From NCBI GenBank assembly GCA_951406725.2, contig OX597815.1, forward strand, positions 170,934,001 to 170,998,000: DNA of 64,000 nucleotides, in the 5' to 3' direction. This document shows, one piece after another, positions 284-22,849 of the stretch (position 1 is its first letter; the number at the start of each line of letters is the position of its first letter). The notes below the pieces were generated by a model. That model ran no database searches and was not told where the DNA came from. It saw only the letters and a program-made list of their open reading frames with translations. The position numbers and the translations under genes were made by a program. Source of the stretch: Octopus vulgaris. Its lineage: Eukaryota.

Positions 284-3200
284 AGCTTATAATAAGGCAA
301 AACACTTCTGTATTAGACTATTATTATTTCTAGAAGAATTTGTATTAATGGCTTTGATATATTATTACATACAGCTACGAAAATATTACGTGTATATGTG
401 TGTGTGAGTGTGTGCGTGTGTGTGTGTGTGTGTTTGTAAGTGTGTTTGTGTGCGCATGTGTTTGTTGGTATGTGCATGTATGCATATAACCGTATGTGTG
501 TGTCCTTTTGTTTGTGTTTAACCCCCATCGACGATCTTGTTTTATTTATTTTCCCGTAACCTAGCGTTTCAACGCAGAGAGCCAAATAGAATAAGCACCA
601 GACATTACCATAAAGAACTCGTGTCGATTTATTCGACTAAACCCTTCAAGGTGGTGTGCCAGCAAAACCGAGGTCTAACGACTGGAACAAGTAATAGATG
701 AAACATATCTTGTGAGGAGTGTAGAATAAGTTATAAATTTCAGCAAAACAGCTCCTCTTATTCCCCTGGTGTTCGATTGACTGGAAAAACAGCTAGAAAT
801 GTTCATCTGTCCCCTTGTACATTTCCTTCCTTCTAAATAAAAGTCATATAAATTATCATATAAAAGTCATATATATTATCATATATATTTGTGACCAACT
901 AGCGATTATTTTTTGTCATATACATTTATTTTAGGGGAGTAGCCTAATTCAGTGACTTTTTAAACATTTTATTGTTTTATGTAAGGAACTAAATAAAATA
1001 CATTATTTTAAAAGACCTGTCCTTTATTACACTGGTAATATTAATCTGTAATATACGGAAAACACAGGAATTCTCGAACGCAGGACGGCTGTGAAGACAA
1101 CTTAGAAAATCGGGTAAATAGCCTTAAAAGACGGGGGAAAATGGCCTGTACAGAGAATCGAACCCTAGAATCATTATTTTGACATCTTCATAGATGTGAA
1201 GACCATTTAAAAGAATAAAGTCCTTAATTACTATAGTGTATCTGGCAATAGGCAGATAAAGATGGGTATATCATTGAGCGGGCAAACGGGCAAGCACCAA
1301 TTAAAGAAATATGCAAAGTATAAAAAAATATGCAAAGTTCCTGCCATATTCAAGAGAAGTAGCATTAGTAATAAAGTATGTTATCTACAAAACGAACTTC
1401 TAGCTAGAGGGAATATCACCTACTTTTCTGTAATAGTCACCAGAAGCTGTCGAAACTAATATACAGAAAATTGGCGAAAATGCCAAGCTCATATTAAAAT
1501 TAACTATATAGGTGTCTGTTTTCAGTGGAAGAGGCTGAGTTGAAATCATTACGACGGTATACAGTGAGTAGGTGTGCAAATTTAACTTGGACAGGTTCTT
1601 GAGTGGTCTTACTTGGAACAGTGCCTGAGTTCATTCATATTTTCATTTTACTCATGAATAGCACGATAGCAAGTTCGTTTAGACTTCGATACAGATCGAA
1701 ATTTTATGTTTGGCAATGTTGACACATAATATGTTGGTTGTGAGAGAAGGAAAAGACTTTCAGTGATGTCAGAATGGCTATTTTATTCACTGGCTTGTTG
1801 ACTGAATTGCTGTTGTAATTTAGTACGTACTACTTAGAAGGCGTATATCCCTTGCGGCAATTGCGTTTGGTGAGGAAGCAGATAGGGATAACAGAGGAGA
1901 TATTAGAGGTAGTAGGGTAATGTTCCAGTAGTGTGAGGAAGGAAAACTGTGATATGTAAGCAGGGCATAAAAATCGATCTAAAAAGAGGCAGCTGATGCA
2001 TAAAAGCAGCCAGGTCATTCCTGATAGTCTTCATGGTAATGCCGTCTTAGCTTCCGTGATGCTATTGCTTAGGAAATCACGGAAGTATGATATATTGAAC
2101 AAAAAGTACTTCTGCCAGACACTATATACATATATCTACATATCTATATATTTACGTGAACACAGGCGTACATAAGTAAGAGAAAACATGCAAAAGTTCA
2201 TTCCCAGATTATTGTATGTGGGGTTGTGTGTGTGTGCATATATGTTAGTATTTGTGTGTACATGTTTGTATGTATGTATGTATGTATGTATGTATGTATG
2301 TATGTATGTATGTATGTATAACTCTTCAAAGAAATATTTATGTCTATGCATAAATATATACTCTATTCATATACTTGAATAATACACATGGTTGTATGCA
2401 TGTATGTGTGTTCTATGTATGCACATTGTGTTTATGTATGTGTATCAGTGTTGTGTAAAAAAAAGATAGTGATTTAGAATAATATTGAGAGGCATAGTGT
2501 TAGATGATGCGTGCATGTTTTTGAGAAAATGGTAATGTGTATGAAAGCTGTATTTATGTCTTCATACCCGTATGTGCGATGTTTTAATAATGATTATTTG
2601 TTGCCTCACTGATAGAAAATAATTAAGAGCAGAAAAACATTATTCTAGAAAATCTATCTCAGAATCTATATCACACAGAAAAGTATCTACATGCACGTCT
2701 GACTCGCTAAAAATAGCAGCCAAGTTACCCTCAAACCCTAATACTGTCTTACGAAAGCAGAATCATACTAGCTGCTGTAACATTAGATATCTTTAAGGTA
2801 GGGTGATAATAGGCGGAATATCACTGATCATAGATCTGCTCAATTAGTTTCGATTTCAAGCAAAGTAACAGCAACAACAAATATAAGACATTGAGTTGCA
2901 TTTGCGGAATCAGTTTATTACAAACCTTTTAAAACAAGACCCCAGTGAGTCAAGGCTTCTTTTGTCCCTCTTTGCACCCTAGATTCGAACGCCATAAAGA
3001 ATGCCATTCTGATTTTCTAAATCTTCTAGGTAATAAAGAACACATTTTTAGAAAAACATTGCTGGTAGTGTTGAATCGTCTGACAAGTGTCGATGATATA
3101 TCTAATACATTTTTTACTAATTTACTGGTTTCAGTCTTTAGAGTGGGACCAGGCTGGAATATCACCTTATTGACTCCAGTTCTGATTTGAAGATTGCTAT

Positions 3201-3327
3201 TTATGCTGTCGGTTTCTTTGCCTAAAAGCTAAGTTATAGGAGTTTAACTTAACCAATACCGGTCGTTATACAATAGGTGGCAAACATAAACGCAAAGACG
3301 ATTACACGTATACACACGCACACACAC

Positions 3328-3376
<49 letters not shown>

Positions 3377-3845
3377 CGTTCTTCCTCACAACTTCCGTTA
3401 ACCAAATTTACTCACAAGGCGTTAGTCGAGCTGGATGTCATGCATTGGAACTAAAGCTGAAACGACGAAGTTGCGAAGCAAACTTCTTGACTATACAGCC
3501 ATACCAGCACATATCAAATAAAATTACAGATATGAATGTTTATAATTGCGCAAACAATTAATTTTATAGGTTGAATGAATTTTCATACGTCACTCAGTAT
3601 TGTTAGAATTTGAAAGCAAAATGAAAACATCGAGTAAGACTTAAAACCTTTCAAGAGTAAAAATTCGTTAGTAGCATACGTTTGCTTTTATGGGAGACGT
3701 AGGGAGGCTATATTATAGAAATCATGTTGCAGAAAGTATTAAGTCAATATGTTCATCTATATTTCAAATGATTGTGTCGACCAGATCCCCACAAAAAAAG
3801 AAGTCAAATATGAGTCAAGTAAAGATTAGGAGATGAACAACGTAT

Positions 3846-4180
3846 AGCAATGGCCGTGTGGTATAACGGTTGATTTTCCAGTCACATAGTTCTGGGTTTA
3901 GTCCCACTGCATGGCACCTTGGCTATGTGCCTTGGTAGACGAAATCTGAAAGAGATCTGTTGTCTATATAGATACACACGTGTGTGTGTGTGTCAATAGC
4001 GCTTGACAACCGATGCTGGTGTATTTAAGCCAAAGTAATGTTTTTTGGGGTGGGGTAGCCAAAGAGAGTGATAGAATAGTTACTAAGCTTAAAAACGGAA
4101 TAAGTACTGAGTTCGATTTGTTCGACTAAAATTACTCAAGGCGGTGCCCCAGCATGGCCGCAGCCTAATGATTGGAACAA
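3846..4180 (+). mobile_element. SINE family 1 copy (diverged)
   Basis: Degenerate head plus CGCTTGACAACCGATGCTGGTG and GCGGTGCCCCAGCATGGCCGCAG tail. Further decayed pieces at ~495-700, ~3200-3510, ~26000-26220, ~38915-39070 and ~51350-51540. Confidence 0.7.
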
Positions 4181-4199
4181 TAATGACTATTATCTATAT

Positions 4200-5095
4200 A
4201 CAACGGAGTTACATCAGCGAGTGGGCTCTTGAGTATAACTCTCGAAAACATTACCAAGATCTCACTCTCAATTTTAACTTTCGAGACGCTAAAACCTGCC
4301 CACTTGACCAGACGTGTTTGATAAACTCAGTCGTATGCAAAGCAGTAGCCATAGCAACGCTGCAAGGTAACCTAACCGAAAAAGTGAATCACATCCGGTT
4401 ATACGAAGGTGATTTCAAAAAACGTTATGTAAACTACCAATCTTGTTTCCGGCACATAGATAAAAGAAAAAAAAACCACTAGCCGCGGAAGTGGTTTGAA
4501 GATCAACTCCACAATATATACAATCAACTAGAGAATCGTAGAGAATTCTGTGCCATATGTTACGGGGTGGGGTCTAAGAAAAACGAAACATATACGTAGC
4601 TGAAAGATAGCATATTCTTTTTAGATCTAAGAATTTCACCACACATCTGAATTCGGGATCACAACATTTTCAGTAAATGGAAACATATGGATAAATTTCT
4701 TTTGGCGAAGTGGAGGACAAACACGCTTCTCGGACTGAGTATCTGTCTCGTAGACGTTGGACTCCATCCGTTTGAATTCTTCTAAGACAATTCTTCTACA
4801 ACAAATAATTATTGTCTTACGGTCAAAGAAAACGTAACTCTAATTTCATTTCTTTGTCCTTTTTTACTTTTTTTCCCTTTTTATTTACCCTTCATTCTGT
4901 GCATCTACCTTCTGTTCCTTTTTTTCTCGTGATTTTTCTTGTTCCAGCATTCTGATTTCTAAATTCAATAGGTCATGCGCTCAGAGCTCGTAAACTTCTT
5001 GGAGACCTAATGTGTGTTATAAAAACATGTCTAGAATTGTGTCTCCAATGCATGAAACTATTGTCTCTAAACTTTGTGCTGTGTATATTAAATTA
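4200..5095 (+). mobile_element. Decayed PLE 3' fragment (Naiad-like GIY-YIG domain)
   Basis: TCPLDQTCLINSVVCKA...HIRLYEGDFKKRYVNYQSCFRH (4144-4482), continuing across frameshifts as YTIN*RIVE..VPY, ..AER*HIL..HLNS.., NIFSKWKHMDKFLLAKW. This is a degenerate version of CPL.G.CL..SVVY.A..YIG.TE..FK.RY.NH..SF ... LN.RSE..SKC.H..KFLL. Confidence 0.7.
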
Positions 5096-12900: not shown

Positions 12901-13020
12901 CTATGAAAGCAGTTTTTGAAGTGTGGGTCAATCAAAACTGTAACCATTATCCGTTATTCCTTCCAGCCTACAGATGAGTATGTATGGGTTTATAGTCCTG
13001 GTCACCACATACACATCAAA

Positions 13021-13082
<62 letters not shown>

Positions 13083-14437
13083 ACACACACACAGTGTGGC
13101 TGGATGTGCACATAGACACATATCTAAATATTAATAAACACATACGATGTTCAAACTATTTCACAAACCTTCTTTTAACACCAATACCCCATTAAGAAAT
13201 TTCTAGTACACCGTTACTGATACAACGATAAGAAATAGTTGTTCACAATGAACCTCTTTCTTATGGAAAGAATAAGTCTTTTTGTATACGAAGAGGAATG
13301 ACGGCATGTACTGATATTTCCGCTCTGTATCAACGAACGCAGGCGTCATAATTATGTCATATCAAGAATTTCTTATTGTAGAATCTTTATCTAGATCGAC
13401 GAAGGAAGTCTGTAAATACACGTCACAGACTGTCTTTTTTGTCTCTCCTACGATGACCTTTGCTGCTTGAAACTGCTGATCACATGCAACATTATTCAGT
13501 TACTCCCATATTACTCGTCTTTCCTCTTCTCATTACCTACATGTCTGTCTCATAAATCCCTGCTCAACTTTTCTTGCAACCGTTGATTGGCTTACAGTTC
13601 AAGTGAAAAGTGAACAGCACAAATATCGCCGATCTTGGGGAGTTTATAAAATCCATGAATGCAGCCCCTTACTCTAAATCATAATATGTCTTCTCCTCCG
13701 CCACAAATCACTATTCATTAACATTTAGCATTCAAGCTTACTAACCAGTCGTTAGTTATAATTCTGTTTGCAATATTTCACGGAGTATTAAAATCATACT
13801 GCAGAAACAAGTCATCCAAAGCAATATCATTGAAAGGGAAGCTGCATAAATCCCAACTGTGGCTTTCAAGTTAACCAGTGAATAACATCTTGCGAAGAGA
13901 AAAATTATTGTACATAATAGAATTAATTGATATATATATATACTGCATTGCCCTTTCAAATCAAGTAAAGGTATCATAAATACATATGATCAAAGAATGA
14001 AATCTGTTCAACTTACATAATGACTATCAGTCTTCTCTGAATTAGGAAACCTTCTTGAACAAATGAATGATTAAAAGAGATTTAGTATGCACAAGATTAA
14101 CCCCATCTCGAAATGTTCGATCATTTTATTATCCGGCCGTTTTTATGTGCTTTGTCTATGAAATATTAATATGATTTAAATACATTCAGTACGTGATTAT
14201 ATGAAAACTATAAGATGCAGATATGGAAAAGAAAATTGTACACTTTTAAGAATATGGTCAAACTTACATACGCAGAGTTCTATAGTATTTACACTGAATA
14301 TATAACTGTTACACAAATATTGATGTTTATTTAACACTTACAACAACGCGTATTTATTGCACACACCTACGTCTTCAAACATGATACTATACTTACTGAA
14401 CATCGATCCATATGTACAAAACTAAAATCATATATGT

Positions 14438-14564
<127 letters not shown>

Positions 14565-14969
14565 GCAGTTTCATTTTATCTCTGAAAATAAATTAAATAT
14601 ATTTACAATTAGAAGATAAAACTCCAGAATTGATACGAATTCTCTTTAAAGCTTCAAGATTTGATATTTGATTTTCCAATTACTGAAACTAAGAATGGAT
14701 ACATAATCAATAGCCTGATGTATAATTTAAACGCCATCTATCAATCTTCTAAGAGTATCATGTTATAGAGGTATATAAATATATATACATGCTACATAGA
14801 TCCAAACATATATATATATACACACATATGTAAAAACGAATCCCATGTGTTCATTATGATATTAATATCGGTGTCAATAATAATGGAGTATGTCCCAAAT
14901 TCTAGAGGTTGCAGGAGAATGCGCTTATCATTTAATGATATATAGGGTATCAGATGTTCTAATCGATCA

Positions 14970-15008
<39 letters not shown>

Positions 15009-15020
15009 ATATCTTATATA

Positions 15021-15055
<35 letters not shown>

Positions 15056-15058
<3 letters not shown>

Positions 15059-15462
15059 CGCAGGAGTGGCTGTGTGGTAAGTAGCTTGCTAACCAACCAC
15101 ATGGTTCCGGGTTCAGTCCCACTGCGTGGCATCTTGGGCAAGTGTCTTCTACTATAGCCCCGGGACGACTAATGCCTTGTGAGTGGATTTAGTAGACGGA
15201 AACTGAAAGAAGCCTGTCGTATATATATGTATATATATATGTGTGTTTGTGTGTCTGTGTTTGTCCCCCCAACATCGCTTGACAACCGATGCTGGTGTGT
15301 TTACGTCCCCGTCACTTAGTGGTTCGGCAAAAGAGACCGATAGAATAAGTACTGGGCTTACAAAGAATAAGTCCCGGGGTCGAATTGCTCGACTAAAGGC
15401 GGTGCTCCAGCATGGCCGCAGTCAAATGACTGAAACAAGTAAAAGAGTAAAGAGTAAAAGAG
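15056..15462 (+). mobile_element. tRNA-derived SINE family 1 (CORE-like central motif, internal microsatellite), full copy
   Basis: Head GGCGCAGGAGTGGCTGTGTGGTAAG..GGTTCAGTCCC, then CTTGGGCAAGTGTCTT, internal (TA/TG)n and tail GACTGAAACAAGTAAAAGAG. Many homologous copies in the window. Confidence 0.85.
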
Positions 15463-15769
15463 TATGTGTGTATACACACACACACGCAACCACACATATA
15501 TACACACATATATATTTTTAAATATAACTCTAGAGCTTTTCTATAGAATTTAGAGTCAGCACTGCTACCAAAAAAAGTGGGACCCAATATTGACTTATGA
15601 ACCTTTAATGTGCATGCCGTCTAAAATGCTTGGCAGAATTTTGTCCGTCTTCACGTTCGGAGTTCAAACTCTGCCGAGGACAACTTTGCCTTTGATAATG
15701 ACGGAGATTTGTTCCCTTCTCCGAACTTGCTAGCCTTGTGCCAAAATTTGAAAATTATACTTAATATGT

Positions 15770-15827
<58 letters not shown>

Positions 15828-16071
15828 GTGTGTACATACTCACACTCATAATGTGTCATTGGATCCCCGTATTTCGACAATGAGGATTATCTGACCAACG
15901 GAATTACCTGCTCTTGAATTAAAATGTAAAGTGACTGATCATTCTACAGTGTAGCCTTAAAAAAATTCTCAAGCGTAATTAGCGCGACGCTGTACATTTT
16001 TTTATTATTTATAATCCACAAGAAGGCCTTCTATACAGTTTCCATCTACTAATGGATATCTATAGTAATCC

Positions 16072-16396
16072 ATGTACATTATTTACATTATTTACAATTG
16101 AAGTATATTTGTCCTCATCTTGTTTGTTAACACAACGTTTCGGCTGATATACCCTCCAACCTTCATCAGGTGTCTTGGAGAAATTTCGAACTTGGGTTCT
16201 CATTCCTAAGGTATTTTTGCATGTTGTTGTTATTAATTATTATTATTATTATTATTATTACTATTATTATTATTATTATTATTATTATTATCATTATTAT
16301 TATTATTATTATTCAGGGAACTGACTGGAATCGAACTCCGAATCTGTGGTTAGTAGCCCGGGCTCTTAACTACTACGCCGCATGCCCGGGTAGTGA

Positions 16397-16445
<49 letters not shown>

Positions 16446-16699
16446 CATAATAATAATAACAACAACAACAACAACAACAGCAGCAGTAGCAGCAACAACA
16501 ACAACAACAACAACAACAACATTGAAAAATACCTTAAGAATGAGAACCCAGGTTCGAAATTTCCCTAATACACTTGACGAAGGTTGGAAGGTATATCAGC
16601 CGAAACGTTGTGTTAACAAACAAGATGAGGACAAATATCCATCAATTGTAAATAATGTAAATAATGTACATAATTCCTCATCTCTTAAATATAGAACTG
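16072..16699. mobile_element. Palindromic non-autonomous retroelement, copy A: tRNA-derived head(s) + (AAT)n + PLE-type hammerhead tail in inverted arms
   Basis: 16072-16316 is the reverse complement of ~16397-16671. A complete tRNA-like head lies on the minus strand at ~16313-16390, while the plus head is mostly deleted. HHR-like motifs occur in both arms. The right arm has an extra ~28-nt tail ending ATAGAACTG. Imperfect 13-bp direct repeats flank it: tagtaatccatgt (16063-16075) and tattaattcatgt (16700-16712). Confidence 0.85.
16129..16174 (-). ncRNA. Minimal type I hammerhead ribozyme motif (PLE type)
   Basis: Minus strand: gACAC-CTGATGA-a-GGTTG gagggtatat CAGCC-GAAACGTT-GTGTt. Intact core, stem II, palindromic mini stem III (ACGT) and stem I ACAC/GTGT. 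Mutated sister copies are at 16569-16614, 20479-20524 and 22638-22683. Confidence 0.75.
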
Positions 16700-17178
16700 T
16701 ATTAATTCATGTGTAAGAGAACTTGCTGACATGAAAAATGAAGTTAAATTTGCAATAGGTTTTAAAGAACCGCTTTTTAAAGCTCTAGAATGTGACAAAA
16801 TGTGATCAATCGTAACCCATGCTAGCATCGATATTATAATAAACGCAAGGATTTCGCTAATAGTTTATGGCTATACTCTCTGAATTAAGAAATTCAGAAA
16901 TGAACCTCTCGATGTATCCATGGCTATCTATGACGTAGCGGACAACTCAGAATTTGCGAACTATATATCCTACAAACTTGAAAAGTTAAAATATAACACA
17001 CAGACCGGAGACACATTGTACTGCATAAAACAAATGGGTTTGGTTTGAATGAACTCAAAAAGACAATAATTACTATTTAGTGATTTAAAATTTACGATGT
17101 ATACAAATAAGTGGAATTTTCTAGATACAATACACAAGAAAAACACTACTAATGCCAGAAACCCAGGAAATAATTCAT

Positions 17179-17577
17179 AGGAGTGGCTGCGTGGTAAGTA
17201 GCTTGCTTACCAACCACATGGTTCCGGTTCATTCCCACTGCGTGGCACCTTGGGCAAGTATCTTGTACTATAGCCTCTGGCCGGCCAAAGCCTTGTGAGT
17301 AGATTTGGTAGGCGGAAACTGAAAGAAGCCCATCGTATATATGTATATATATGTGTTTGTGTGTATATATGTTTGTATGTCTGTGTTTGTTTGTCTCCCT
17401 CCCCAACATCGCTTGACAACCGATGGTGGTGTGTTTACGTCCCCGTAACTTAGCGGTTCGGCAAAAGAGACCGATGGAATAAGTACTAGGCTTCCAAAGA
17501 ATAAGTCCTTGGGTCGATTTGCTCGAATAAAGGCGGTACTCCAGCATGGCCGCAGTCAAATGACTGAAACAAGTAAA
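17179..17577 (+). mobile_element. SINE family 1 copy
   Basis: Colinear with 15056-15462. Confidence 0.85.
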
Positions 17578-18991
17578 CTTAATCAGGGGTTCGAAGCAGT
17601 CTCGATCATAAAGCACCTTGCAGACAACATAAGCAAACACACATCTAGTCTTTCTTTAGAACAAGAAATACGTAGTAACGCTGCCCCGTATGTAGGGGAT
17701 GTAACTAGAAGTTTTAACAATGCTGAAATATATCTAACAGCCACGTGAAATAATCCCAAGCAGAAAATGAAATATCTATTTTGTTTGTCTTTATAGTTTA
17801 AATTTATGCGTAACTTGTGTCACGCTGATATCACAAAATCTTCAACAAAATTCTGTGGCGGCTAGCTGTGTGTATCATTGATTTGCAAATCTCTAACCAC
17901 TGTCAAAAATCTACCACAAACACTCAATTCGAATGCAACTTGGAGTGACACGACAAGACGGCAGTGAGTTAGAAAACGCAGGCCATTAAGAAATAGCAAC
18001 AGAGATGTTTCTAAATTGAGTTAACTGTAAGTACTTTTAAAATTAGATATAGACGCCACACCAATTTATTTAGATATAGAAATAAGTGTGATACGAGACT
18101 GACTGACTCTAAAGCCGATACGAGTACATATTTTTACAAGTAAGTAGTTTACGTCTAAATTTTAGTTTGAGAGCTTTGTTTGTTAGAATTTTAGTGGGAA
18201 CATTGCGCAATAAAAGCAGAAGTTACATAGCTGACAAACACGAACTTCTGCAGGTGCGGAAGTTCATATATATGTTTTGTCTTGTCTAAATAAATCAATA
18301 TCAGAAACTATGTCTTCAGGATAAAATGATACTATACAAATAAATGTTTGTAAATTTGCTGTTAAAACATAGCAAGTCGGAGAACCGACAAAATCTTTAG
18401 CACGCTAGTCAAAATGTTTGGCGGCATTTTGTCCGGCATTTTATTCTGACTTCAGCTCCCGCGGAATATCTCCTTGCTTTTCAACCTTTCGGGGCCGATA
18501 ACAGAGGTACCACCTGAAAACTGGAATCGATTTAATCGACAAACCCCGCCTCCATAAGAATATCAGTTTTTGTACATATATTAGAAAACAGAGCCACACA
18601 TTCAATGAATCATTCTCAAATTATGTGTGTGTGTGTGTTCAAGTCTGTGTTTGAATGTCTGTATGTATTATTTCAGCTAAGGCATCTAGACACATATAAG
18701 CCTTATTGTGATTATTCTTGTAATAGAGCTCCAGCTCAATCTTGATCTGGCAGAACTATAGCGATCACTATCTTTCCTTTTCGTTTATAAAAGTCTATAC
18801 TGTGTAATGAAATCTTTCTTCAATTAAGGTTTCAAGGTGTGGTTTTTAGGAGTATTGATGAAGAGTATCGGTATTTCTTTTCTTGTAGTAAGGTAAGATT
18901 CCTTTGTTCGCTCCACAAGTACAGCCATCCGTCACTCTTCAATGAGTATGACTTGCTAATATGTACCATGCTTTCGTTAATTGTTTTTCAG

Positions 18992-19061
18992 GTGCCTATG
19001 CTGTCACCAGCAGATATAGACTTCTTCATGGGCAACCTCAACCCAGTAGACCATCCAGGAT
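18992..19061 (+). CDS. Candidate isolated host-gene exon (product unknown)
   Basis: Pyrimidine-rich acceptor TTGTTTTTCAG|G, then 70 nt of higher GC open in two frames (VPMLSPADIDFFMGNLNPVDHPG or AYAVTSRYRLLHGQPQPSRPSRM*), then a possible donor T|GTGAGA. Confidence 0.3.
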
Positions 19062-19068
19062 GTGAGAG

Positions 19069-19105
<37 letters not shown>

Positions 19106-20576
19106 TGTGAAAGAGAGAGAAAAAAAAAGAGAGAGAGAGAGAAGCGGAAGGGGAAGGAACGAACTGCAGCAGCACAACCTGGCTGGTAATCATAACAGAT
19201 GAGTAGAGTGGAACCACCGAGATTAGTGTGCCTTGCTTTATGAAACAACGCACTTCCTGGTCCAGAAACTGAGTCCACGACTTTACGGTCATATACCCAG
19301 CATCATAGCCCCTAAATCACACGCCTTCACCACTGAGAACATATACCAGTAGATCCCGTAGGCATCACTATAGTTTCCGACAAAGTAATATCCTCAAATT
19401 TTCTTGACACTACATTTTATTGCTGCAAAACATTGAAAAGTTGACAAAATATTTTGCACAAGTGTGTAAAATTATTGTACAATAATACATTGCCTCAATG
19501 CCAAAGCAGGGAAACACTGATATATACCCAGTGTATATTCGTAGGCCTTTTAATTGGTTTATTCTAAAGTTCTACATATATGACCCATGTTCGATCCTGC
19601 TGTTGCTGATAAGGAGGGCTTTAATAACTGCACCAATATTTGCTTACTTGACAGCGGTCAGATGAAGTAAGGTTGAATACTTGCTAATGAGGCAATAAAA
19701 TGTTTGTAGTGTTGGTGGTGAATTGTTTTGCTAAACAATGTCCTCGTTAGTAAAACTATAATAGCCAAGAGAGAGAGAAAGAGAGAGAGAGAGAGGGAGA
19801 GATGATAAGAGAAACAAGAGGGAGAGATGGGTGGGAGGAAATTTAAAAACAAATATAAAAAGAAACGGAACATAGGAAGAGAGACAGAGAGGTAATAGAT
19901 GGAAAGTGGTTGTTAGAGATAGGAGAGGTAGGTAGATCTGAATATTATGGAGAAATATAAAATAAATTGAGAAGCAATATTGTGGTAAGGTAAAATAAGA
20001 GAGATATAGTGAAGGGGAGAAGAAGAAGGATGGAGCGGACAAGGAAGCGTGGTTGTTCCATCGGGAAACTGTGACTATTCAAATGGAGAAAAGAAGTGCA
20101 TAAATTAAAAAGGCTAATGGAATATATACATACATAAGAGGGAAAGAGAATAAAGCAAAATGAGCGAGAGAGGACTGAGTGGGAGAGATACTGAGAAAGA
20201 CAGACTGAGAGAGAGAAATAAATAGATAGATATTAATTGATAAATTATACGCAACAGTCGTAGATGTATCGCCATATATATGTTTACACACACACACACA
20301 AACAGAAACATACATACACACAAACATATATATATGAAAATAATGGCGAACAGTGTTATTAACCAATTATTTATTATTGACGAAACTGTATTATAATTTC
20401 AGTTCTATATCTAAGAGTTGAGGAATTATGTACGTTATTTATATTTGACGGATATTTGTCCTCATCTTGTTTGTTGTTAACACAATGTTTCGGCTGATAT
20501 ACCCTCCAACCTTCATCAGGTGTCTTGGGAAAATTTCGAACCTGGGTTCTTATTCCTAAGGTATTATTCGATGTTG

Positions 20577-20652
<76 letters not shown>

Positions 20653-20656
<4 letters not shown>

Positions 20657-22319
20657 TAGTTTTATTTTTATAGCGTGCTTTCACTTCACTACCGAGCGCA
20701 GCTCTGTGTGCCTTGGGTATGTGCTGTGATTTGTTGTGATGCTCTGATGGTTATTGTATGGAAAGTGTTCTGCGTAGGATGTGTGCAGTGCCTAGTAGTG
20801 CAATTTTCTGTATGTTATATGTGTTTGTAAGTCCTGGTGTTTTTGTTATGCATTTGTCTGAATATTTTTTTATCATGCCTAATGCACCTACTATGATAGG
20901 AATTGTTTCTGTTTTCAGATTCCACATTCTAGTTACCACTATTTCCAGGTCTTTGTATTTTGAGAGTTTCTCCATTTCTTTTAGAGACACGTTGTCATCT
21001 GCCGGTATTGATACATCAATTAGAAAGCATTTTTTTTCTTCATGATCTCTGACAACTATATCTGGTCTGTTGGCCTTAATTTCTCTATCTGTGTGTATCG
21101 GCATATCCCAGAGTATGGTTGCTTTCTCGTTTTCTGTGACCTTTTCTGGTGTGTGCCTATACCATCTTTTTTCTGTTGTTATTCCATAATGTTGGCATAG
21201 CTTCCAATGTATGTAGGTTCCAAATCTGTCATGTCTGTGAATATATTCCTTCTTAGCCAGGACTGGGCAGCTAGAGATAATATGATTTATTGTTTCTTGT
21301 CCATCTCCACATATTCTGCAGTTACTTGTAATATTTCTTTTCATTACATGTTTTTGGTAATTTCTGGTGGGGAGGCTTTGGTCTTGTGCTGCAATTAAAA
21401 ATCCCTCTGTTTCTGCTTTGAGTCCTGAGCTTCTCAACCATTGCTGGGATTTTTCTTTGTCTATTTCTTTTGCGTTTAGTGTAGTATTTACCATGAAGGG
21501 GCTTTTCTTGCCATCGTTTTATCATGGTTCGTTGCTGTTCTATTTTTAGTTTGGATTTCATTTGTTTTATAGCTTTTGTTGTTTCTTCATCATCTTCTTC
21601 TTCTTCTTCGTGTTTATTAGGTGGTATGATTTCTTGTTTGTATTTGTCAGCTTCCTTAAATACTGAGAACAGTTTTTTTTGTTTTGCTCGTGTTTTGCTG
21701 CTATCTGGATCAGTTTTCCTTCCTTCTGAAGTAGGTATTTTTGCAGTACTATGGTATTTATTTCATAGTAGTTTTCCAGCTGTATAAGACCTCTACCACC
21801 TTCTATACGTTGTATATATAGTCTTTCTATGTCAGATTTTGGGTGATGCATCCTAGATCCTGTCAGTATTTTTCTTGTTTTCCTATCTATTTTGGACAGT
21901 TCATTTCGTGTCCAGTTAAGGATATTGTAGCTGTAACTTATAACTGGAACAGCTAAAGTGTTGATACCTATTATCTTGTTTTTAGCATTGAGCTCTGTTT
22001 TTAGTATTGATCTAACTCGTCTATAATATTCTTTTTTATTTTCTCTTTCATTTGTGTGTGTTGTGTCTTATCTAGTTCATGGATTCCTAAGTATTTGTAA
22101 GTTTGGCTTTGGTCTAATTCTTTTATTTCATTGGTTTTATCTAGTGTGATGTTGTTACTCTTAACTAGTTTTCCTCTTTTAATGGTTACTTTGGCGCATT
22201 TTTCTAATCCAAATTTCATATCTATTTCTTTGGTAAATCCATGAACTGTCTTTAATAGTGTTTCCAGCTGTTTGTCATTTGCAGCGTATAGTTTTAGGTC
22301 ATCCATATATAAATATGGA

Positions 22320-22320
<1 letters not shown>
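20653..22320 (-). mobile_element. 5'-truncated, frameshifted R4/Dong-clade non-LTR retrotransposon (RT C-terminal part + zinc knuckle + restriction-like endonuclease)
   Basis: LYMDDLKLY RT motif (22001-22306), ERLYIQRIEGGRGL, WQEKPLHGKY, CRICG..ETINHIISSC, RHD and RPDIV..LIDVSIP..EKLSKY (RLE) in 20751-21494. Flanked on both sides by (TAA)n, the known Dong target. Confidence 0.92.
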
Positions 22321-22382
<62 letters not shown>

Positions 22383-22383
22383 T

Positions 22384-22460
22384 CAGGTCACTGACGAGAA
22401 TCGAACTCGGAATCTTGGGGTTAGGTAGCCCGCGCGCTTAACCACTACGCCATATGACCC
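22384..22460 (-). promoter_or_regulatory. Second (divergent) tRNA-like SINE head with A and B boxes
   Basis: Reverse complement reads GGGTCATATGGCGTAGTGGTTAAGCGCGCGGGCTACCTAACCCCAAGATTCCGAGTTCGATTCTCGTCAGTGACCTG. GGGTCAT/GTGACCT can form an acceptor-like stem. Confidence 0.7.
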
Positions 22461-22461
22461 G

Positions 22462-22532
22462 GGGCATATGGTGTAGTGGTTAAGAGCGCGAGTTACTAAC
22501 CCCAAGATTTGGAGTTCGATTCCAGGCAATAA

Positions 22533-22537
<5 letters not shown>
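22462..22537 (+). promoter_or_regulatory. tRNA-Arg(ACG)-like SINE head with Pol III A and B boxes
   Basis: GGGCATATGGTGTAGTGGTTAAGAGCGCGAGTTACTAACCCCAAGATTTGGAGTTCGATTCCAGGC has A box TGGTGTAGTGG and B box GTTCGATTCC. By eye it resembles metazoan tRNA-Arg(ACG) (CTAC...AAGATTCC..GTTCGA.TCC.GGC in the family consensus). Confidence 0.7.
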
Positions 22538-22601
<64 letters not shown>

Positions 22602-22849
22602 CTTAGGAATGAGAACCCAGGTTCGACATTTCCCCAAGACACCTCATGAAGGCTAGAGGGTATATCAGCCGAAACGTTGTGTTAACAACAAACAATATGA
22701 GGACATATATCTGTCAAATGTAATTAATGTAAATAATATGTATTATAATTTGTCCAACAAAACGTAGCTTGCCGTGATCATACAGAAAACCATAGGAAGC
22801 AATGCATTTTCGAATTAATTGTGGTGATCGTTTTGAAGTTCTACAAGAT

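Follow-up and report, generated by a model that had tools for sequence, protein, structure and literature searches.

The palindromic repeat at positions 20400 to 22738 of the 64,000-nucleotide stretch of Octopus vulgaris DNA analysed here (the window) almost certainly originates from the pseudo-LTR of an autonomous PLE of the same genome, judging by the sequence shared by its tRNA-like head, AAT spacer and hammerhead tail. The tRNA head is probably the Pol III promoter of the full-length coding PLE, with the short copies representing run-off cDNAs of the first pseudo-LTR. A fuller reading has in our judgement an even chance of being correct: a captured tRNA gene drives an autonomous PLE, Pol III transcribes a 2.6-kb RNA whose ORF has been cleared of Pol III termination signals, and internal RT priming turns that RNA into full copies as well as more than ten thousand SINE-like ones, the SINE and its partner being one transcript.

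The element in the window consists of two inverted arms, each with a tRNA-like head, an (AAT)n spacer and a hammerhead tail, laid out as follows.

20387..20399, + strand: left copy of the TSD, 13 bp (sequence and repeat search; TSDs are enriched in the family versus shuffled flanks)
20400..20572, - strand: left arm tail, the 5' end of the putative Poseidon ORF with a mutated start codon; long 3' end with the 25-nt PLE 'tail'
20479..20524, - strand: left minimal hammerhead of type I, with a helix I of 5 bp and a stem II of 6 bp
20573..20656, - strand: left-arm (AAC/AAT)n spacer, tail-side part (sequence)
20657..22319, - strand: nested 5'-truncated LINE inside (AAT)n (RVT_1 and zf-RVT matches)
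22320..22383, - strand: left-arm (AAT)n spacer, head-side part (sequence)
22384..22460, - strand: left head, of tRNA origin, with its A box at 22442-22452 and its B box at about 22397-22406
22461..22536, + strand: right head, of tRNA origin (A box 22469-22479, B box 22514-22522)
22537..22599, + strand: right-arm (AAT)n spacer (sequence)
22600..22738, + strand: right arm tail, the 5' end of the putative Poseidon ORF with its ATG at 22609; short 3' end
22638..22683, + strand: right minimal hammerhead with a mutated core (predicted cut between 22678 and 22679)
22739..22751, + strand: right copy of the TSD, 13 bp (sequence and repeat search)

The heads are 76 nt long per arm and meet at 22460/22461. 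Location of arms and heads in the sequence bore out the palindrome order of the original prediction (tail-spacer-head followed by head-spacer-tail), the perfect 13-bp TSD it named was recovered as an exact direct repeat at 20387-20399 and 22739-22751, and its estimate of about 670 bp for the element compares with 676 bp once the nested LINE (20657-22319) is removed. The predicted difference of about 28 nt between the arms held in kind and not in amount, with the left arm extending to tail position 173 and the right to about 148, a difference of 25 nt. Repeat search matched the inverted arms over 144 nt (20425-20568/22594-22737; 90%) and again at 22320-22424/22496-22600. The nested LINE, also foreseen and confirmed by its RVT_1 and zf-RVT matches, is of the RLE type, carries the end of an RT, a zinc knuckle and a restriction-like nuclease motif, and splits the left (AAT)n; copies of 95-99% identity were found in the (AAT)n of other family members. 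Its motif suggests that it is R4/Dong-like.

Eleven heads were found to run upstream into one common sequence encoding RT and GIY-YIG motifs, and tails run downstream into the start of the same ORF. The end of the ORF was followed directly by the head in 25 of 27 ORF-end matches, which include one near-identical duplicated pair; the other two matches start with head bases and are rearranged. At one locus (L273) a tandem junction reads ORF end, head, AAT, tail and ORF start. The majority sequence of 49 fragments contains a single 835-codon ORF whose ATG lies inside the tail (window position 22609) and whose stop is 29 nt from the next head, giving a parent order of head, (AAT)n, hammerhead within the ORF start, 835-codon ORF, 29 nt and head; the tail makes up the first ~50 codons of this ORF. 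The encoded protein has an RT (RVT_1 match by Pfam) followed by a C-terminal GIY-YIG-type motif, which was read by eye and has no match to Pfam PF01541 there. Homologs of the parent protein carry RT and some also PF01541, and a related protein from another source (P0003; 55% identical) has a similar N-terminus across the hammerhead region. The proposal that the machinery comes from a PLE rather than a LINE is upheld by the tail, which matches the PLE ORF start and not the nested LINE, and the suggested search for an autonomous PLE sharing that tail led to this RT and GIY-YIG element. A partner LINE, as SINEs have, is replaced here by the PLE whose ORF start forms the tail.

The CX2-5CxxC zinc-finger linker, a feature of Neptune and Nematis whose absence was taken as a Penelope/Poseidon criterion, is absent from the ORF of locus L250 and present in Neptune-type ORFs of the same genome. 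The domain layout without this linker fits Penelope/Poseidon, a putative clade assignment based on the layout and on motifs. Neptune-type PLEs, which made up almost all of the results of a Pfam GIY-YIG search of the genome, were considered as partners and rejected, as their 3' regions have no match to the tail. No intact ORF was present among 86 protein matches in the genome, in which the family looks dead, and no DNA of close relatives was found in metagenomes (query P0003) or viral contigs.

Exact matches in the genome numbered 5,162 for a 19-nt hammerhead pattern and 4,478 for a 24-nt 3'-end pattern, together with 2,124 matches to a degenerate head pattern and 661 to an ORF-end pattern, with zero matches to reversed-pattern controls. 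Scaled by match rates within fetched copies, these correspond to rough totals of 13,000-21,000 arms versus about 2,000 ORF ends (~7-10 to 1). Insertions were sampled from 93 of the first 100 hammerhead matches listed (of 5,162), resulting in 84 insertions of which 52 were inverted, 31 single and 1 other. The proposed count of palindromic versus single-arm copies therefore returned an inverted majority, although the value of 62% is approximate, since selection on the hammerhead core favours two-armed insertions and nested elements hide arms. Two near-complete heads were present in only five of the 84 insertions, which does not support integration as a programmed head-to-head dimer. One long and one short end were found in 40 of the 46 inverted pairs having tails at both ends, the long 'tail' extension measuring 25-30 nt in the family. 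A TSD of at least 8 nt, mostly 9-15 bp, flanked 29 of the 52 inverted insertions versus 1-4 in five shuffled pairings, an excess that excludes chance as its source; none was detected in the 31 single-arm insertions with the boundaries used. Direct tandems are occasional, and inverted or single arms dominate. The two arms of an insertion share variants beyond chance, though not always, and this pattern fits one source in most cases. The palindrome is ordinary PLE behaviour: PLEs generally leave 5'-truncated copies in inverted orientation, one end of which bears a tail of 30-40 bp, as described in the available sections of PMC8557442 and in agreement with those of PMC4209133, and the family displays a tandem-derived pseudo-LTR, inverted truncated copies and a tail at one end.

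An independent non-autonomous SINE with a borrowed PLE tail, integrating as a head-to-head dimer, was the reading originally offered for this locus; it is largely refuted and now appears very improbable. The SINE-like head, the length, the copy number (5,162 exact 19-mer matches) and the inverted majority (52/84) agree with it, and, as in SINEs, the head derives from a Pol III RNA and has A and B boxes. The head is, however, included in the autonomous element (25/27), two full heads are confined to 5/84 insertions, and inverted copies are generic for PLEs in the text available from PMC8557442 and PMC4209133. Comparison of 34 ORF-linked with 98 head-start heads revealed no variants private to the short copies, and three variable sites had similar frequencies in short versus ORF-linked copies (11/33 vs 30/98, 5/24 vs 12/84 and 4/24 vs 14/82), the equal frequencies differing from what an own non-autonomous lineage would display. 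Decay was also equal (tail 4.5%, ORF 4.7%, non-CpG sites). Given these shared variants and the equal age of short and ORF-bearing copies, the short copies do not make up a separate SINE lineage. The same comparison contained a few nominally significant differences, uncorrected for many tests, which were alignment-edge gaps, one CpG site and rare alleles. A free SINE head moved by an AAT-targeting LINE was also considered and dropped, as the tail lay downstream in 28 of 29 head-selected loci (the window's excluded); the single locus without a downstream tail carries a piece of the nested LINE.

The A and B boxes are present in both heads at the window locus and intact in the family majority head. 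ARAGORN called no tRNA in the window, with relaxed settings giving noise, and Rfam returned no tRNA or hammerhead match at E<=1 in the window, only chance miRNA-type matches. In a comparison with 20 tRNA genes of the genome, drawn from 34 matches and covering 8 anticodon types, the head scored highest against Arg-TCG (z 7.8), followed by Arg-TCT (z 7.2) and Ala-TGC (z 6.1-6.6). By this comparison the head is tRNA-derived, as had been predicted, and the predicted Arg identity is moderately supported, with the Ala-TGC score close behind. The two window heads differ from the family majority at 5 and 6 of 76 positions, which looks like ordinary decay and not like two designed variants. Among the copies, which decay neutrally, divergence was 7.5% in the A box versus 5.7% elsewhere in the head. 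The start of the head is spanned by a 5-bp palindrome, and junctions often carry short antisense heads.

The predicted Penelope-type tail with a minimal hammerhead was confirmed, the tail being the start of the PLE ORF and the family majority having the expected core, an unpaired base before stem II, a short helix I (4-5 bp as the criterion) and a palindromic stem III. Twenty distinct motifs from control PLE loci have the same hammerhead layout with differing but paired stem II. At the window locus the right-arm core is changed from CTGATGA to CTCATGA and the left-arm stem-III palindrome is broken by one change; both hammerheads likely carry inactivating changes. Divergence among copies was 3.9% in the core versus 4.5% in the rest of the tail, a difference that is uninformative on hammerhead activity, as neutral decay is expected. 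MFE folding recovered no active hammerhead, as monomer or dimer. The hammerhead lies within the first ~25 codons of the majority ORF; its predicted cut falls 70 nt past the ATG and would therefore provide no translation start.

The 5' ends of the copies cluster at the head. Among 104 arms not chosen on the head, 92 reach head +20, of which 78 end between -20 and +20 and 14 extend further. The end hazard per nt was 0.036-0.052 from -20 to +10, whereas it was 0.0015-0.009 within the tail and did not exceed 0.007 upstream, with bins near +40 limited by detection. Folding revealed no stable structure in the head able to stall RT, so an RNA 5' end is likelier than an RT stall, and the RNA very probably starts at the head; in the right arm of the window this would place the transcription start at the first base of the head or just before it.

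A run of four T is the termination signal of Pol III in metazoans. In the 2.6-kb unit the sense strand contains no TTTT, against an adjusted expectation of 6.9 (Poisson P 0.001; P 0.01-0.04 versus shuffles), in a test made on one majority sequence. Runs of A, C and G were not significantly depleted, with G4 runs absent too (P 0.10), and 17 TTTT runs, nearly all private, occurred across the 49 copy fragments. None of 71 control PLE ORFs was as TTTT-poor. In 73 related PLE ORFs from other organisms TTTT runs were 1.6 times as frequent as shuffles predict, Neptune PLEs of the same genome carry 8-9 TTTT runs versus 3.6-4 expected, and in a second, overlapping control set two of 93 lacked TTTT, both about 1.1 kb with 1-2 expected. 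The controls of this test are only 30-44% identical in protein, the relatives recovered for use as controls being of 30-48%; since the comparison covers such distant elements, short of the relatives of 55-68%, the TTTT-poverty may predate the head. An A and B box pair was found downstream (within 700 nt) of 0/67 control ORFs. When three raw RNA runs and one contig set, whose species label may differ, were mapped on locus L263, depth was near-equal on both strands with a profile that tracks the number of copies in the genome, and neither starts nor ends accumulated at the head or hammerhead in this possibly unstranded library. This pattern fits passenger transcription or an unstranded library and counts neither for nor against the model. 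Drosophila Penelope is described as having a Pol II-type internal promoter in its pseudo-LTR in the available part of PMC2377424, so a start site in the pseudo-LTR alone does not imply Pol III.

From this anatomy and these statistics we infer the polymerase, the priming steps and the translation of the element, modelling two-strand nicking and internal priming on the Poseidon protein of Anolis. In the available text of PMC11167929 the Poseidon_Ac protein, a predicted dimer, nicks and extends both strands and prefers ATT. It starts RT at two internal positions within the ORF start, and these define the tail; it depends on the initial 172 nt of the ORF, and in vitro it works without hammerhead cleavage. 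The 3' ends of the octopus family fall into two clusters, at +123-129 and +154-160 relative to the ATG. Transcription would begin at the head and cross the whole ORF, in which it would meet no terminator for Pol III, and the enzyme would nick both strands of AT-rich DNA and start RT internally at a pair of sites within the ORF start. RT primed in the first pseudo-LTR of the RNA would run off at the 5' end after about 250-300 nt and give a SINE-like arm; RT primed in a downstream pseudo-LTR would give ORF-bearing copies. Two cDNAs, one per strand, would then be joined at their 5' ends, helped by the short palindrome at the start site, to leave a pair of inverted arms, only one of which has the long end, flanked by a TSD of 9-15 bp. 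At the window locus both arms would be complete by chance, with the LINE inserted into the (AAT)n later. A Pol III RNA would be uncapped, and we count against the model that it gives no explanation of its translation.

This translation problem would be sidestepped by a division of labour in which Pol III makes only short SINE-like RNAs, moved by the PLE protein, and Pol II read-through supplies the mRNA of the ORF. The pile-up of 5' ends at the A/B-box head and the rough excess of short arms over ORF ends (about 7-10 to 1) are also in its favour. It leaves unexplained, however, why TTTT is absent across the whole ORF; the unit has no terminator to end a short RNA, the short copies lack private variants and, by analogy with the 172 nt required in Anolis (available text of PMC11167929), inserted short copies would probably miss part of the protein-binding region. 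We consider this arrangement unlikely, and doubt to the same degree its implication that the short copies are a PLE-dependent SINE born inside its own partner. The head could instead be an old tRNA or SINE fragment carried in the 3' UTR, the sharp ends arising from a Pol II internal promoter or from cDNA snap-back at the palindrome. Internal promoters within the pseudo-LTR start the transcription of Penelope and Chlamys (for Penelope, available part of PMC2377424), the 5-bp palindrome and the common short antisense heads would suit snap-back, and the A box is no better conserved than the rest of the head (7.5% vs 5.7%). Against this stand a start that matches the initiation point of a tRNA-type promoter, majority A and B boxes that are intact and the absence of TTTT, and an 85% loss of arms seems much for a 5-bp hairpin; a fragment of this kind is quite improbable as the full account. 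Transcription of the coding element from its tRNA head remains our preferred reading.

In tRNA SINEs (SINE2, octopus OR/OK), as in the short copies, a tRNA head with A and B boxes, a length under 700 bp, more than 10,000 copies and TSDs are found, but the octopus element has a PLE partner with which it is collinear, head included, and no simple-repeat 3' tail. The short copies may be identical to one of the families named OR1, OR2, OK and 'Twitch', and repeat catalogues may already list them as a SINE of octopus. The family resembles Poseidon_Ac and D. virilis Penelope in its single ORF with RT then C-terminal GIY-YIG, starting at the hammerhead, and Penelope/Poseidon PLEs in having two internal 3' ends that yield an optional tail, partial tandems, inverted 5'-truncated copies and AT-rich targets (available sections of PMC11167929 and PMC8557442). 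It differs from them in a pseudo-LTR that opens with a tRNA-derived A/B-box head and an (AAT)n spacer, in an ORF without TTTT and in the sharp start of most copies at the head; the Penelope promoter is described as LINE-like and TATA-less, unlike a tRNA-type head (PMC2377424, in part). A small-RNA-derived Pol III promoter in the terminal repeat of a retroelement is shared with TRIMp3 (Cassandra, Helenus, Ajax), for which a SINE insertion into the repeat has been proposed as origin; TRIMp3 are non-autonomous LTR elements of 0.3-1.3 kb, whereas the octopus carrier is an autonomous PLE with a 2.5-kb ORF, and in place of true LTRs, a PBS and a PPT there is the pseudo-LTR of an ORF-bearing PLE (available text of PMC10886601). 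Non-LTR retrozymes are likewise short non-coding type I hammerhead repeats from PLE pseudo-LTRs, but form head-to-tail tandems of units each with a hammerhead (10.64898/2026.07.22.740005, in part), whereas octopus copies are mostly inverted pairs. Schistosoma has hammerhead pairs 100-700 bp apart on opposite strands (PMC4209133), and the available text of that paper and of 10.64898/2026.07.22.740005 makes no mention of a tRNA head. The repeat annotation in the accessible part of PMC13282606 gives counts only. No paper on a PLE with a tRNA head or Pol III promoter was listed in the literature searches.

Autonomous retrotransposons are expected to need Pol II for an RNA that is long and translated, and the autonomous partners of TRIMp3 are argued to have to use it (available text of PMC10886601). 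If the Pol III reading is wrong, what is left is a Poseidon family of the usual kind whose pseudo-LTR contains a tRNA fragment. If it is true, a TTTT-free PLE starting at a tRNA-type promoter would be a natural counter-example to the need for Pol II, and translation of an uncapped Pol III RNA would become testable. The family would also illustrate how SINE-like repeats can arise without a SINE gene of their own, and automated annotation may misfile PLE pseudo-LTRs of this kind as tRNA SINEs. Its copies provide a large natural data set on the double-strand integration of PLEs, with two priming sites, arm concordance and TSDs of 9-15 bp.

The tRNA-headed Penelope/Poseidon family has another inverted insertion within the window (16078-16700), besides that at 20400..22738, with one long end and an imperfect target-site duplication of ~10 bp. 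Its arms are as follows:
Left arm, within window 16078-16700: head complete.
Right arm, within window 16078-16700: begins in the final ~10 nt of the head.

The (AAT)n spacer of this family is a landing pad for other elements. The RLE-type LINE of window 20657-22319 was found in the spacer in 6 of the 84 sampled insertions, and in further family copies (AAT)n was interrupted by other elements ending in AAT. Spacer interruptions, by the LINE or by other AAT-ending elements, occur at:
Window 20657-22319.
Sequence loci L002, L013, L152, L153, L160, L187, L188 and L220.

A younger Neptune-type PLE family (L061, L062, L078, L079; about 940-4340) displayed numerous intact 781-aa frames, a degenerate hammerhead-like motif, and a 3' UTR with tandem repeats. 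Two additional short palindromic elements (L062 4332-4754; L066 7515-7982), one containing a hammerhead-like motif, are probably inverted pseudo-LTR insertions from other PLE families. PLE ORFs were also present in contigs labelled as bacterial or archaeal MAGs (L377-L401), probably representing contaminating host DNA.

Internal deletions spanning head and tail were frequent in ORF-bearing copies of the tRNA-headed family (L234, L242, L249, L261), and their varied positions suggest template jumps rather than splicing. Among inverted pairs (L001-L230), tail variants were common to both arms above chance (7 discordant pairs compared to 19 expected; 9 compared to 28 expected), although this sharing was not universal, with some pairs having discordant arms. 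This suggests that in most inverted pairs both arms stem from a single RNA or locus, and that two sources underlie a minority of pairs.
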